DNA from: a virus
Lineage: Duplodnaviria > Caudoviricetes
DNA length: 32,381 nucleotides
Strand: one strand, 5' to 3'
Virus record (IMG/VR): IMGVR_UViG_3300032295_001524
Span: 1 to 32,381 of that record
Both the position numbers and the translations under genes were made by a program. Shown here one piece after another: positions 11,976 to 23,815 of this stretch; position 1 is the stretch's first letter; each line of letters begins with the position of its first letter. The notes beneath the pieces were generated by a model, which worked only from the letters and a program-made list of their open reading frames with translations, was not told the DNA's origin and searched no databases.

Positions 11976-12410
11976 CAACTCAAAGTTATTTTTTATGGTT
12001 TCAACACGGGCAGCGTAACGCCTGTCAATCTCGCAGAAATTGTCCACTAAATTAACCGCATGGATGACTGTGGAGTGGTCACGCCCACCGCAAATGTTGC
12101 CGATATCCCTTAGCGACATTGCTGTTTTGTAGCGGAGTAGCCACATAAATATCTGCCGGGGTTCCAGATACTCACGCTCACGGGTTTTGTGCGACACATG
12201 CGTTGGCAAATAGCCATGATACGCTGACCTTATTGCAAGGTGAGCGGCTTTGACTGCGGCATCCTCATTGGTGATGTTCATTTTTAGCATCCGTTCCAGT
12301 TCCTGTATGCGGATTTGCTGATGCCGGATTGTTTCTTTTAGCTGCGACACCTCGCTCATGCGGAAAGTGGTGCGGCTGTTTGTCTTTGGTGTTTTTATTT
12401 TTGCTCTCAT
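11958..12410 (-). CDS. DnaA C-terminal (domain IV) HTH-like protein
   Basis: PRQIFMWLLR...SLRDIGNICGGRDHSTVIHA matches the DnaA domain IV signature. Confidence 0.8.
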   Translation of the reverse strand: MRAKIKTPKTNSRTTFRMSEVSQLKETIRHQQIRIQELERMLKMNITNEDAAVKAAHLAIRSAYHGYLPTHVSHKTREREYLEPRQIFMWLLRYKTAMSLRDIGNICGGRDHSTVIHAVNLVDNFCEIDRRYAARVETIKNNFELFVNEV

Positions 12411-13356
12411 GTTCTATTATTTGAAAAAGTTGATATGCGATTTGTGGCACTATGGCGTTTCCATATCCTTTGATTGACTCGTTTCGCCACTTAGAAAAGG
12501 TAATTCCGTCCAGTTCGGTGGGAAGCCCATCATCTCCGCCACAAATCGGGGGTTGAGTTGGGAAGTTTTGCCAGTCCATTGGGGGTTGTCTTTTGCAATT
12601 GTCCTTGTTAAATTCATCTGTTTGAAATTGCCTGTTTTCACACCCTCTCCCGTATCCCTGTACTCTCCTGCTACTGGTGTCGGTAGTAAGCCCGTCACCC
12701 ATCCCGCGACCGTTTCTTCTAAATTCCCCTTGTTCCGCGTTGCCAATTTTACGCTGTTGAGGTCGCATCCATTGACCTGGTTCGCCCTCGGTGTCGGTAG
12801 CATTTTGGCTACCATTAACAAACTCGGACTGAAATCCTCCCTTCTCCCATTTTCGTTGTTCAATGTTGGAGTTGGTAGCAATAAACCAACATCTATCCCT
12901 GCGGTGGGGAGCGTTTTTGGCCGCAGCTGGAATAATAAACGGTTGAACTTCGTACCCTTCATTTTCCAAATCAACGCACACCTGCTCGAATACCAATCCG
13001 CCGTCAATGTTGACAATACCAAAGACATTTTCTGCAATGACCCATTTGGGTTTAATTTCACGTATTGCTCGAAGCATTTCATGCCAGAGGTAGCGTTCAT
13101 CACTTGTTCCTTTTCGTTTTCCGGCAAGTGAGAATGGTTGGCAGGGGAAGCCACCGGAAATAATGTCAACTGTTCCTTCATATTTTGTAAAATCTGTTTT
13201 GCAAATATCTGTGTGGCTGTCTGCTTCCGGCCAGTAGTATTCCAATACCTTGCGTGGGAACTCCATCCACTCACAATGGAATACGTTTTCCCATCCCATC
13301 CATTCGGCTGCAAGGTCAAACCCACCGATGCCTGAAAATAAACTGCCGTGTCTCAT
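12265..13356 (-). CDS. DNA cytosine-5 methyltransferase (alpha chain: motifs I-VIII and X)
   Basis: SLFSGIGG, GGFPCQPFS, ENV, PHRRDR, YGNAIVP. Confidence 0.9.
   Translation of the reverse strand: MRHGSLFSGIGGFDLAAEWMGWENVFHCEWMEFPRKVLEYYWPEADSHTDICKTDFTKYEGTVDIISGGFPCQPFSLAGKRKGTSDERYLWHEMLRAIREIKPKWVIAENVFGIVNIDGGLVFEQVCVDLENEGYEVQPFIIPAAAKNAPHRRDRCWFIATNSNIEQRKWEKGGFQSEFVNGSQNATDTEGEPGQWMRPQQRKIGNAEQGEFRRNGRGMGDGLTTDTSSRRVQGYGRGCENRQFQTDEFNKDNCKRQPPMDWQNFPTQPPICGGDDGLPTELDGITFSKWRNESIKGYGNAIVPQIAYQLFQIIEHESKNKNTKDKQPHHFPHERGVAAKRNNPASANPHTGTGTDAKNEHHQ
12450..13181 (-). CDS. Overlapping alternative-frame methyltransferase beta chain (TRD + motif IX)
   Basis: MKEQLTLF start, three LPTP repeats, LNPRFVAEMMGFPPNWT (motif IX-like, absent from the alpha frame). 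Confidence 0.7.
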   Translation of the reverse strand: MKEQLTLFPVASPANHSHLPENEKEQVMNATSGMKCFEQYVKLNPNGSLQKMSLVLSTLTADWYSSRCALIWKMKGTKFNRLLFQLRPKTLPTAGIDVGLLLPTPTLNNENGRREDFSPSLLMVAKMLPTPRANQVNGCDLNSVKLATRNKGNLEETVAGWVTGLLPTPVAGEYRDTGEGVKTGNFKQMNLTRTIAKDNPQWTGKTSQLNPRFVAEMMGFPPNWTELPFLSGETSQSKDMETP

Positions 13357-21120: not shown

Positions 21121-22277
21121 CCGATTACCAACGCAGGATATTAGACAGCCATGCAAGGTACACGATTACAGCAGCCGCCACCAAAGTAGGCAAGACGGCA
21201 TCGCATATTATTTGGTTATTTGAGCAGGCATTGACACTCAAAGAAAATCAATCCGTGTGGTGGGTGGCACCCGTGTATCAGCAGGCAGAAATTGCGTTTA
21301 ACCGTATGCGGACACAGGTAACCAACAAGGCATTTTTTAAGGTCAATGAAAGCAAACTGCGACTGACCACACCAACGGGCGGCATTATTCAATTCAAGTC
21401 AGCAGAGAAGCCCGACAACCTTTATGGGGATGATGTCTATGCAGCCGTATTCGATGAGTTTACAAGGGCAAGAGAAGAAGCGTGGTTCGCCCTGCGTTCC
21501 ACCCTCACCAAAACAGAGGGCAAGTGCAAACTAATCGGGAACGTAAAGGGCAAAAAGAACTGGGGATATAAGTTAAGTGAACGGGCAAGGATGGGTGAGC
21601 CAAACTACGAGTTCCACAAAATCACGGCCTATGACGGAGTTAATGCTGGCATCCTAAAAATTGAGGAAGTTGAGCAGGCAAAACGTGACCTGCCACAGCA
21701 TATATTCAGCGAGTTGTACCTTGCCGAGCCAACAGAGGATGGAAGCAACCCATTTGGTTTAAACTTTATCAACCAATGTATCGCACCGCTCTCAAACCGC
21801 CCTGCCGAGTGGTACGGTATTGACCTTGCAAAATACAGCGACTGGACTGTCATCATAGGATTGGATGCCGAGTATAAGGTTTGTCACTTTGACCGCTTCC
21901 AAATGGATTGGGCGCAAACAGAGCAGCGAATTATTCGTACTATTGGCAGCACACCTGCGGCATTGGACAGCACGGGCGTGGGTGACCCAATCGTTGAGAA
22001 AATACAGCGTGTCTGTCCTCGTGCAATCGGTGTGAAATTCACCAGCACCAGCAAGCAACAAATGATGGAACAACTGACGGCAGACGTTCACGCAGGGGCA
22101 ATTAAATTTCCAGAGGGTGTAATTGCAGACGAAATGCGTAACTTTGAATTTGAACACACGCAAACGGGCATGCGGTATTCAGCACCATCAGGACTACATG
22201 ATGACGCTGTTTGTGCATTGGCACTTGCCCGGCATTGCTCAATAAAAAATAAAAAAGGAGTATTTGTAATAATATGA
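21090..22277 (+). CDS. terL: Terminase large subunit
   Basis: Walker A TKVGKT, WWVAP.Y.QA, Walker B VFDE, nuclease GIDLA...HDD. Confidence 0.92.
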   Translation: MHIQYKRPFVTDYQRRILDSHARYTITAAATKVGKTASHIIWLFEQALTLKENQSVWWVAPVYQQAEIAFNRMRTQVTNKAFFKVNESKLRLTTPTGGIIQFKSAEKPDNLYGDDVYAAVFDEFTRAREEAWFALRSTLTKTEGKCKLIGNVKGKKNWGYKLSERARMGEPNYEFHKITAYDGVNAGILKIEEVEQAKRDLPQHIFSELYLAEPTEDGSNPFGLNFINQCIAPLSNRPAEWYGIDLAKYSDWTVIIGLDAEYKVCHFDRFQMDWAQTEQRIIRTIGSTPAALDSTGVGDPIVEKIQRVCPRAIGVKFTSTSKQQMMEQLTADVHAGAIKFPEGVIADEMRNFEFEHTQTGMRYSAPSGLHDDAVCALALARHCSIKNKKGVFVII

Positions 22278-22870
22278 AATTACCAAAATCATGGCAGGAC
22301 ATCAGCATCGGCACTTTTCAGCAGTTGCACAAGTTGACCGAGCCAACATTTGAAAACCAAATCGCCACCCTTGCGGTGCTGACCGACAAAAGTGTGGAGG
22401 ACATCGAGGAATTGTCAATAAGAGAAATAACGGATGCCATTGCAAAATTGTCATGGATGTCGCAGCTACCTACCGCAAAGGATTGTAAAAAGTTTCGGCA
22501 CGGGCTTACCACTTACAAATTTGTGGCATCGCAACACGAATTGGCAGCGCATCAGTTTATCACCGTGCAGGATTTGTTCGGTCAGCAAGATAATTGGGTT
22601 GGCAACCTGCACAAAATCATGGCGGCACTGGCTGTGAAATATAAGTGGTTCCGCAAATCGGAAATCAAGCCCACAGAATTTGACAAGGTGGCTGACCTAT
22701 TCCGTGACCGCATGAGCATTGCCAATGCCTACGGATATGCGCTTTTTTTTTCGGCTTACTTGCCGGAGTTACTCGAAACTACCCGAGTATATTTAGAGCA
22801 GGAAGTGGAGAAGTTGAGGAAGATACACGCAGAAAAGACCGCCCAGCAATCGCATGGCTCAAAACAATAG
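22274..22870 (+). CDS. Tail assembly chaperone (G-like)
   Basis: MKLPKSWQDIS start; contains slippery T9 run at 22743-22751. Confidence 0.65.
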   Translation: MKLPKSWQDISIGTFQQLHKLTEPTFENQIATLAVLTDKSVEDIEELSIREITDAIAKLSWMSQLPTAKDCKKFRHGLTTYKFVASQHELAAHQFITVQDLFGQQDNWVGNLHKIMAALAVKYKWFRKSEIKPTEFDKVADLFRDRMSIANAYGYALFFSAYLPELLETTRVYLEQEVEKLRKIHAEKTAQQSHGSKQ

Positions 22871-23067
22871 ACGGCATGGCAAATGGTGACCGCACCAAAT
22901 GGGATTTCTTTTTAAATATGGGGTTGGTGGAGTTTCTCAATGCGGTATCGTTCCACAATGAAAAACAACGGGCAAAGACCGAGCGTCTTAATGCAGCAGC
23001 ACAAGGGGCAAAATCCGCCAAAGATAGCAGCGTGTACCAAATCGCCTTATTGCAGGAAATGATTTGA
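22741..23067 (+). CDS. -1 frameshift extension of tail chaperone (GT-like)
   Basis: -1 frame is open from the T-run: FFFGLLAGVTRNYPSIF...AWLKTIDGMANGDRTKWD... Confidence 0.65.
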   Translation, partial: AFFFGLLAGVTRNYPSIFRAGSGEVEEDTRRKDRPAIAWLKTIDGMANGDRTKWDFFLNMGLVEFLNAVSFHNEKQRAKTERLNAAAQGAKSAKDSSVYQIALLQEMI

Positions 23068-23096
23068 CCTACTTTTATTAGTGAGGTTGCGGCCTT

Positions 23097-23210
23097 GCCG
23101 GGTTAGTGTATAATAGGTAACATCTCCATTCCGGATAACGGGTTGCTTTGAGCGGCACTATAAGAGCAATTCAAAGATGGTGGACGAGGGTTCGATCCCC
23201 TCACCCGGTG
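23097..23210 (+). ncRNA. tRNA-like RNA with a 47-nt insert replacing the anticodon loop
   Basis: Acceptor GCCGGGT/ACCCGGT, D-arm GTGT-ATAATAGGTA-ACAT, T-arm GAGGG-TTCGATC-CCCTC; no encoded CCA. Confidence 0.7.
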
Positions 23211-23212
23211 CA

Positions 23213-23815
23213 ATGAACATAAGCAAGGCAGATTTAGCCCGTTTGGATGATTTGTTAAAAACAATCGGCATTGACGAAGCCACCGCAGGCATGGGCGGCT
23301 CTGTGCTTGGTGATGCGATGGAAAGGGTTGCACAAGTCATTATTGACAAGCTGAAACAATCAGCAATGGAAAAGGGTGTCAAAGCAACAGGCAATCTTGT
23401 GCAGAGCATTAGGGCTGATTTTCCAAGTGTCACCCCACAGGGTATTACGGTTGCAATCGAAATGGCTGATTACTACCAATGGGTAGAAAGTGGAAGAGGG
23501 CCGACCAAAACAACCACTGCAAGCAAACCGACACTCGTACAAAGTTTAGAACAATGGATTTCTGCAAAGGGCATTCCAGTTCGCAAATCAAAAGGGCAAA
23601 GCGGTCAATCTGTACTTGAACTGCGTAAATCAATGGCTATTGCTATTGCGCGTAAAATTCACAGCAAAGGCACAATCAAAAGGTTTGGTTACAAGGGTTC
23701 TGGATTTATAGCCGATGTACTTACCCAGCAAAACGTGGATGTCATTGCACAGAAACTATCCGACATTACCGGGTTGCGTATTTCAGCATTTGTCACTACC
23801 GAGATAGCCAAATAG
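23213..23815 (+). CDS. HK97 gp10-like tail completion protein
   Basis: ATGNLVQSI, YYQWVESGR, AIARKIHSKG motifs; start 23213 right after the tRNA-like RNA. Confidence 0.7.
   Translation: MNISKADLARLDDLLKTIGIDEATAGMGGSVLGDAMERVAQVIIDKLKQSAMEKGVKATGNLVQSIRADFPSVTPQGITVAIEMADYYQWVESGRGPTKTTTASKPTLVQSLEQWISAKGIPVRKSKGQSGQSVLELRKSMAIAIARKIHSKGTIKRFGYKGSGFIADVLTQQNVDVIAQKLSDITGLRISAFVTTEIAK

Follow-up and report, generated by a model that had tools for sequence, protein, structure and literature searches.

A conserved tRNA-shaped phage RNA with a covarying palindrome in place of the anticodon loop, a predicted homodimer

The window, by which we mean the whole stretch of DNA analysed (32,381 nucleotides), comprises the whole 32.4-kb genome of a phage, with direct repeats at its termini. 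A Bacteroidota bacterium is the probable host, to judge from promoter-like motifs and the name of one homologue; among the neck homologues one is named from a Cytophagia bin and another from an Actinobacteria bin. The RNA element described here lies on the plus strand at 23097-23210, just ahead of a gp10-like neck/tail-completion gene (23213..23815, plus strand; PHROG 5, E 1.2e-5). The two upstream neighbours, 22274-22870 and 22876-23067, were taken for tail chaperones in an earlier note on this DNA; a family search gave no match for either. An eight-T run at 22743-22750, near the 3' end of a 198-aa gene and upstream of the 63-aa ORF (22876-23067), is possibly a tail-chaperone frameshift site. 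The window also encodes a C5 DNA methylase (PF00145) at 12265-13356. It avoids GATC (5 vs 102 expected), CTAG (3 vs 31), CGCG (7 vs 47) and GCGC (15 vs 64), and the strength of the GCGC avoidance varies among relatives.

The upstream motif TACTTTTAT, to which the earlier note had pointed, is present at 23070. The promoter-like motif TACTTTTA (23070..23077, plus strand) resembles the Bacteroidota sigma-A -7 box TAnnTTTG. It is also found 5-7 nt ahead of the ATG of four other genes of the window (711, 8366 on the minus strand, 23817 and 29732), and exact TATATTTG boxes occur at the corresponding slot in relatives. The same motif precedes the neck gene in relatives without the element, and there the neck start follows 5-8 nt after the motif. 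The spacing of TACTTTTA suggests near-leaderless transcripts from a variant Bacteroidota -7 box. In Flavobacterium the box covers -12 to -5 (PMC9723704); here we infer a promoter role for TACTTTTA, and the predicted transcription start of the element is at about 23082. A scan for sigma-70 promoters and terminators gave nothing on the plus strand. An optional 5' leader hairpin with a UNCG-type loop (TGCG; TACG in relatives) is situated at 23083..23096 on the plus strand and has a folding energy of -4.1 kcal/mol. A compensatory variant is seen in L035 and L055, and the hairpin is missing from L034, L036, L051, L054 and from the second subfamily described below.

The tRNA-like features which the earlier note listed were all found in the sequence at their coordinates. 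The 5' half of the scaffold (23097..23129, plus strand) comprises, by pair counts in 13 and 20 sequences, the 5' strand of the acceptor stem GCCGGGT/ACCCGGT (23097-23103/23203-23209), followed by T8-A9, the D stem GTGT/ACAT (23106-09/23120-23) and the 5' strand of the anticodon stem (23124-29/23177-82). The latter stem was correctly recognised in the earlier note but its size was not: instead of 4 bp plus a T.T it has 6 bp, 15 of 20 sequences having a Watson-Crick pair where the T.T stands. The 3' half (23177..23212) holds the 3' strand of the anticodon stem, a short variable region, the T arm GAGGG-TTCGATC-CCCTC (23186-23202) and the 3' strand of the acceptor stem. The discriminator G23210 is followed by C23211; CCA is unencoded and the sequence reads G-C-A and then ATG 23213.

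A single sequence of this kind folds no better than its shuffles (z -0.64), and the case against chance is therefore a comparative one. Relatives were gathered via the neck protein. Of 215 loci found 80 were taken, and the element lies upstream of the neck gene in 22 of these 80. In 13 distinct relatives 95.6% of the cells pair and 10 pairs change on both sides; the pairing score of this alignment was matched by 0 of 500 shuffles, and controls with slid positions gave 46-55%. With both subfamilies included (20 distinct sequences, from related phages of ~32 kb) pairing is 97.4%, with changes on both sides in 14 of 29 pairs. In this joint alignment the pair 1:72 was counted in 13 rows, the seven rows of the second subfamily being without the first base. 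The T stem is 100% paired in the 20 sequences, with 3 of its 5 pairs covarying, and acceptor position 4 is G-C in 13 and C-G in 7. RNAalifold, unaided, recovered the acceptor, anticodon, distal and T stems, and the pair counts uphold a cloverleaf with acceptor, D and T arms. The small print of the scaffold is equally constant: G10.U25 in 20/20, a discriminator G in 18/20, and an encoded C74 with position 75 never C in all 20, so that CCA is unencoded throughout. Position 1:72 is weak or mismatched (G.U or G.A). U33 and a 7-nt anticodon loop are absent, and the module in their place measures 47-50 nt in the family.

The element might be a decayed pseudo-tRNA with a chance insert, in keeping with the folding energy, the missing CCA and the absence of an Rfam tRNA match. 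The covariation counts refute this, since every arm has compensatory changes; the elements of L035 and L055 moreover share 92-95% identity with that of the window, against about 69% for the upstream genes of these loci, and the insert carries the palindromic constraint set out below. We regard decay as extremely improbable. The compensatory changes in the stems instead bear out the view of the earlier note that the element mimics a tRNA, carries a structured insert and is conserved. Judged by these alignments the tRNA-shaped element is real and conserved, and is a new RNA family.

The insert in place of the anticodon loop has 47 nt in the window (23130-23176). It starts with the palindromic hexamer TCCGGA (23130..23135, plus strand), at tRNA positions 32-37, which is a predicted site of intermolecular pairing. 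The alignment of both subfamilies places after it a linker UAAC (23136..23139; UAAA in some, with UAA invariant), then a distal hairpin (23140..23172) with a 10-bp stem (23140-49/23163-72) and a 13-nt loop (23150-62), and a second linker AAAG (23173..23176) in which AAA is invariant, all on the plus strand. In the consensus the 6-bp anticodon stem thus leads through a 10x4 internal loop into a distal hairpin of 10 bp. Three helices had been suggested for the insert in the earlier note. Only GGGTTGCTTT/AGAGCAATTC (23140-49/23163-72) covaries, at 4 of 10 pairs. The helix TCCG/CGGG pairs in only 30 of 52 cells, and CTTTGAG/TTCAAAG pairs in 76 of 91 cells with zero compensatory change; both are discarded. 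Pairing of CGGGT (23139-43) with the 3' strand of the acceptor stem, which was also considered, suits the first subfamily and was rejected since CGGGT is absent from the second.

The second subfamily was found in a covariance-model search of whole relatives, at 66-72 bits and at a different genomic site. In its 10 contigs the element lies 3' of a nuclease/phosphoesterase-like operon and borders on a convergent gene's stop codon, and no gene follows it on its own strand. The distal hairpin is swapped for a different 36-nt domain, the stem of which (L766, L782, L784, L786, L789, L791, L793) has AGTA opposite GAAA, in the manner of a loop-E/sarcin-ricin motif. The distal loop, with GC-NNG-GCTC, resembles the GCAGGCTC loop of L034, L036 and L054.

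For the neck gene the true start is likely ATG 23213 and not the in-frame ATG 23177, which lies inside the RNA. Neck homologues without the element have the same M-N/S-I start in common. An extension through the 3' half of the element is called in 90 of the 120 neck-protein clusters listed (169 were found). The N-terminal extension from ATG 23177 was rejected: it is detached or out of frame in six loci, and its variation tracks the covariation of the T stem.

The genomes also bear on a role tied to the neck gene. In most members of the first subfamily the ATG follows 2 nt after the discriminator; in two loci the spacing between element and neck gene differs. L034, L036, L051 and L054 have a promoter-like motif for the neck gene itself, downstream of the element. 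Among 14 near-complete relatives tested, chosen among those without an element beside the neck gene, 11 are without any member, and relatives without the element retain the same gene order. When L010 is compared to L001, and L035 and L055 to the window, the element is identical or 92-98% identical and the neck proteins are 44-73% identical; the closer phages L005 and L009 carry a version of the element which is 77-79% identical. The identity of the element is thus out of step with that of the neck proteins, pointing to a cassette exchanged between phages. Comparison of these genomes shows the element to be mobile and dispensable. Punctuation of the neck-gene transcript, which the earlier note had proposed, is not the core role of an element that moves, is missing from those 11 relatives, stands in four loci ahead of a separate neck promoter motif and in 10 contigs elsewhere; release of the neck mRNA may be a by-product of processing. 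It should be noted that an invariant C after the discriminator is reported to hinder RNase Z (PMC7479834). Since a C follows the discriminator in 20/20 sequences the route of 3' processing is uncertain.

The main finding, which the earlier note overlooked, is that the hexamer is a covarying palindrome. It is the most variable stretch of the stem-flanked region, yet it is always self-complementary. A first pattern in which the hexamer was left free gave 64 matches in the viral collection; 24 of 24 members had a palindrome and 0 of 40 chance matches did. The figures for a second pattern were 24/24 and 0/57. Palindromy was predicted before the diverged subfamily was found, and its 10 contigs then turned out to have TCCGGA, ACCGGT or GTCGAC. 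A pattern for both subfamilies, again with a free hexamer, gave a complete list of 32 matches, all of them members and all 32 palindromic. Seven palindromes occur in these: TCCGGA (9), GCGCGC (6), ACCGGT (6), GTCGAC (5), AGGCCT (4), AGCGCT (1) and GTGCAC (1). The 32 matches represent 19 distinct sequences from related contigs, and the number of independent switches is perhaps 8-10. In the 20-sequence alignment the three self-pairs of the hexamer are kept in 20/20 and each changes on both sides. A shuffle test of the self-pairs gave 100% pairing and a covariation score of 1.27 (0 of 500 shuffles). The change takes place by jumps: L035 and L055 have 0 differences outside the hexamer and differ in 4 of its 6 bases. 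GTCGAC recurs on four branches of a tree made from the hexamer-free sequence, the support of which is rough.

All seven hexamers fall within the 32 palindromes that have at least 4 G+C. Their self-duplexes have energies between -7.5 and -10.9 kcal/mol; of the 15 cross-pairs that the first six can make, 12 are weak. GC-rich palindromic hexamers are depleted in six genomes (167 observed vs 834 expected) and non-palindromic control hexamers show no depletion in the same six. The hexamer which a phage has in its element is found elsewhere in its own genome 4 times vs 22 expected. Because such words are purged from the genomes, the palindrome site is kept against a genome-wide cost, presumably that of host restriction.

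Six bases without a loop cannot pair within one strand, and the conserved self-complementarity therefore points to pairing between two molecules. The hexamer sits in the 10x4 internal loop, not in an apical loop like that of the HIV-1 DIS. The consensus fold leaves it unpaired; in ensembles of single sequences part of it is buried in most members, with differing partners. We consider it quite probable that the hexamer is selected for self-pairing between molecules, through which the RNA would likely form a homodimer.

A different explanation of the palindrome is that it acts as DNA, as a binding, methylation or recombination site or through template-switch repair, and that the RNA is a monomeric tRNA mimic. 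All seven hexamers do resemble sites of type II restriction enzymes or methylases, the C5 methylase (PF00145) is encoded by the phage, and the multi-base jumps suggest recombination. Hexamers containing GCGC are found only in loci without GCGC depletion (5/13 vs 0/4), a comparison of too few and too related loci. A protein site would not, however, wander across seven unrelated sequences; depletion of the own hexamer elsewhere argues that it is not a protected site; the flanks lie outside the inverted repeat, and the position is exactly the open loop of the covarying RNA fold. We find a DNA-level function rather improbable. A choice by each phage of a hexamer that its host tolerates was unsupported at the 6-mer level and left a weak hint at the 4-mer level.

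The relation to ordinary tRNAs was followed up along several lines. RF00005 gave no match at E<=5 in the window and none on the members in L005, L034, L051 and L054. A search against Rfam, including tmRNA, YrlA, ROOL and GOLLD, had as its only match tmRNA, at 15 bits against a gathering threshold of 47 and for the T arm only; no Rfam family matched the window, and relatives gave the same result. ARAGORN reported a tRNA-Leu(CAA) at 23137-23211, which was rejected as a mis-fold, with 33 of 65 cells paired in its anticodon stem and 27 of 52 in its D stem. The ordinary tRNAs best matched by model R2 are tRNA-Asp(GUC) of Bacteroidota type, at 42-44 bits vs at most 40 for others, which is a thin margin. 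G10.U25 and G73 are shared with tRNA-Asp, where they have an identity role; the GUC anticodon of tRNA-Asp can self-pair, at most a hint of the scaffold's origin. Run on 100 viral records, 50 of which carry the other scaffold family, R2 found one member, already known. The remaining R2 matches scored 30-44 bits; of the 21 that were checked, 19 proved to be ordinary tRNAs. An annotated phage collection contained homologues of neither the RNA nor the neck protein. Scans of 3/64 parts of a metagenome set and 28/64 parts of a genome set gave no member and mostly unrelated Pseudomonas matches, from which absence is not implied.

The earlier note had also offered a tRNA with a mini-intron and a CAA anticodon. 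According to this reading removal of 40 nt from a tRNA-Leu would restore a Y-U-C-A-A-A loop. Phage tRNAs with enigmatic introns have been reported (10.1101/356790), and the 7 nt before the stem read Y-T-C-A-A-A-K in the 13 sequences of the first subfamily. In the second subfamily, however, they are CTTAAAG, CTTAAAT or CAAAAAG, so that the CAA loop is lost: the restored loop would hold CAA in 13 of 20 sequences, TAA in 5 and no U33 in 2. The TC bases belong to the distal stem. A discriminator G in 18/20 and a G.U or G.A at 1:72 also speak against a tRNA-Leu. The structure is the 10x4 internal loop, with no bulge-helix-bulge, group I feature or splicing motif, and no insert-less copy was found among the model matches in 151 records searched, the weak matches being ordinary tRNAs. 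Four low-share assemblies of metatranscriptomes supplied the RNA data; the element is covered in one, and no spliced joint was seen in these four runs. One RNA-library contig from a relative spans the element unspliced at a depth of 3.3 with TCCGGA kept, for which DNA carry-over is possible. One RNA-library contig stops at 23208, a single contig end which is no evidence of processing. As the mini-intron moreover leaves the palindrome unexplained, we find it very improbable.

We lean towards a non-decoding tRNA-shaped RNA which would pair with itself through the palindrome into a symmetric dimer and would act in trans as a putative tRNA decoy. Transcription would start at about 23082 from the -7-like box, the short hairpin leader would be removed by RNase P, and the 3' end would be trimmed and CCA completed from the encoded C74. 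Two molecules could then form a 6-bp intermolecular hexamer helix stacking on each anticodon stem. The hairpin, together with the A-rich linkers (UAA and AAA), is supposed to brace this helix independently of its sequence, which would explain why the hexamer is free to change. Such a dimer might present two tRNA elbows and acceptor arms and no single-stranded anticodon, and might bind and stall host proteins that recognise tRNA, for example anti-phage tRNA nucleases. A decoy against such proteins is our best guess for the putative job, made tentatively; it fits a mobile and dispensable RNA in which elbow and acceptor arm are retained and the anticodon position is concealed. A more specific and doubtful form of the idea is that the element is a selected two-headed, uncleavable tRNA dimer, its anticodon position locked in a self-specific helix between the two molecules, that inhibits dimeric host defence enzymes targeting tRNA.

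Other uses of a dimer have been weighed. Two neck-gene mRNAs could pair in cis as a concentration sensor or processing switch, the tRNA shape being a punctuation site. The start codon 2 nt past the discriminator in most first-subfamily members would suit this, as would the common placement, seen in the clusters that read through the 3' half of the element, and dimerisation of an umbravirus genome activates transcription (PMC10484742). Against it stand the four loci with a neck promoter motif of their own 3' of the element, the two with a different spacing, the 10 contigs in which the element closes another operon at its 3' end and no same-strand gene follows, and the unchanged gene order in relatives without it. 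We judge a cis dimer distinctly unlikely. A dimer or higher oligomer could also be a structural or storage RNA, like pRNA, ROOL or GOLLD, that takes part in assembly or is packaged in the virion. The element lies under a late-type promoter among morphogenesis genes, oligomerising phage RNAs are known (PMC12286853, PMC7357161), and the distal loop is also weakly self-complementary (-4.7 to -13.1 kcal/mol, a range without a control). Since 11 of the 14 near-complete relatives tested do without the element it cannot be a core part of the motor, and the elbow and acceptor are conserved as though they were read by tRNA-binding proteins; a structural RNA is in our opinion unlikely.

Dimers of tRNA usually pass for refolding artefacts or disease states, and natural RNA oligomers are rare (PMC7357161). 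Palindromes of this kind are known from other RNAs. GCGCGC and GUGCAC drive the homodimers of the HIV-1 DIS (PMC5874298), and both oskar mRNA (PMC7357161) and HYER1 (PMC12990946) dimerise through a GC-rich 6-nt palindrome. The phage RNA shares with the HIV-1 DIS and oskar a GC-rich 6-nt palindrome selected for self-complementarity (PMC5874298, PMC7357161), and two of its seven palindromes are HIV-1 DIS sequences, which implies no homology (PMC5874298). It differs in that the palindrome stands in an asymmetric internal loop followed by a hairpin, comes in seven forms, and would form the predicted dimer. With the tRNAs of RF00005 it has in common the 7/5 acceptor and T stems, U8, a 4-bp D stem, the T loop and a short variable region, and it lacks their 7-nt anticodon loop, U33 and an encoded CCA, having the 47-50 nt module instead. 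The intron-containing tRNAs of Lak megaphages likewise carry an insertion in the anticodon arm of a tRNA body and belong to Bacteroidota phages (10.1101/356790); for the phage RNA no insert-less copy was found and no anticodon is conserved, and a covarying palindrome is unmentioned for the Lak tRNAs in the part of that report available to us. ROOL, GOLLD and the phi29 pRNA are phage ncRNAs with conserved intermolecular pairings too (PMC12286853, PMC12990946, PMC7357161). They are not tRNA-shaped, ROOL and GOLLD measure 550-830 nt, and pRNA is essential and uses two different complementary loops, unlike an RNA missing from 11 of 14 relatives tested. A comparable tRNA case is tRNA-Leu(UUR) A14G of human mitochondria, whose pathogenic dimer forms via a six-nucleotide palindrome (PMC7357161); this is a D-arm misfolding mutation, whereas in the phage RNA the palindrome occupies the anticodon position and is both selected and conserved.

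A literature search gave no published description of the RNA, part of the supplements of PMC10690425 being outside the motif search. Six supplementary files of that paper held no motif match, and its 10,006 candidate viral RNAs could include the family. In the available part of a review of non-canonical tRNAs (PMC7609411) the words 'phage' and 'dimer' do not occur. Phage tRNA-like RNAs and palindrome-driven dimers are each known; their union in one selected RNA appears to be new. By the comparative evidence a tRNA-shaped RNA seems to have been selected for dimerisation. The seven natural palindromes are ready-made controls for it, and an RNA of 115 nt is easily made, so that the claim is open to direct test. 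Should it be a decoy, it would represent an RNA-only counter-defence of a new kind, a handle on phage RNAs with a tRNA scaffold and also a natural, programmable self-assembling RNA module. If the two-headed mimic is true, the fast-switching palindrome might be a self/non-self code, as the RNAs of co-infecting phages mostly cannot cross-pair; alternatively, switching might dodge host restriction of an obligatory DNA site.

In relatives other types of tRNA-shaped cassette fill the slot ahead of the neck gene, which is a hot spot for them. One family with D and T arms has constant ends (AGTCAGG...CCTGACT) and a hypervariable middle (L022:2755-2873, L050:2816-2923, L054:2744-2862, L626-L751). Its 133 matches have 116 distinct inserts, with several copies per genome; about 510 stretches are estimated in the viral collection for 60-90-nt middles alone, and against Rfam it gave tRNA matches only. 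A further cassette in the neck slot (L019:2878-2961, L022:2877-2964, L029:2746-2830 and about 25 more loci) has a short acceptor stem, a covarying D-loop hairpin with a GAATGAATA loop and a 3-5-nt loop which replaces the anticodon; it had no match in Rfam. In larger phages there are tRNA-like genes which share the CCGGGT/ACCCGG acceptor and have 40-55 nt inserted in the region of the D arm (L396:1496-1612, L401:1496-1616 and L406:1496-1614, these three on the minus strand, L412:1500-1628 and L424:1500-1618), and some of these retain a CAT anticodon loop and CCA.
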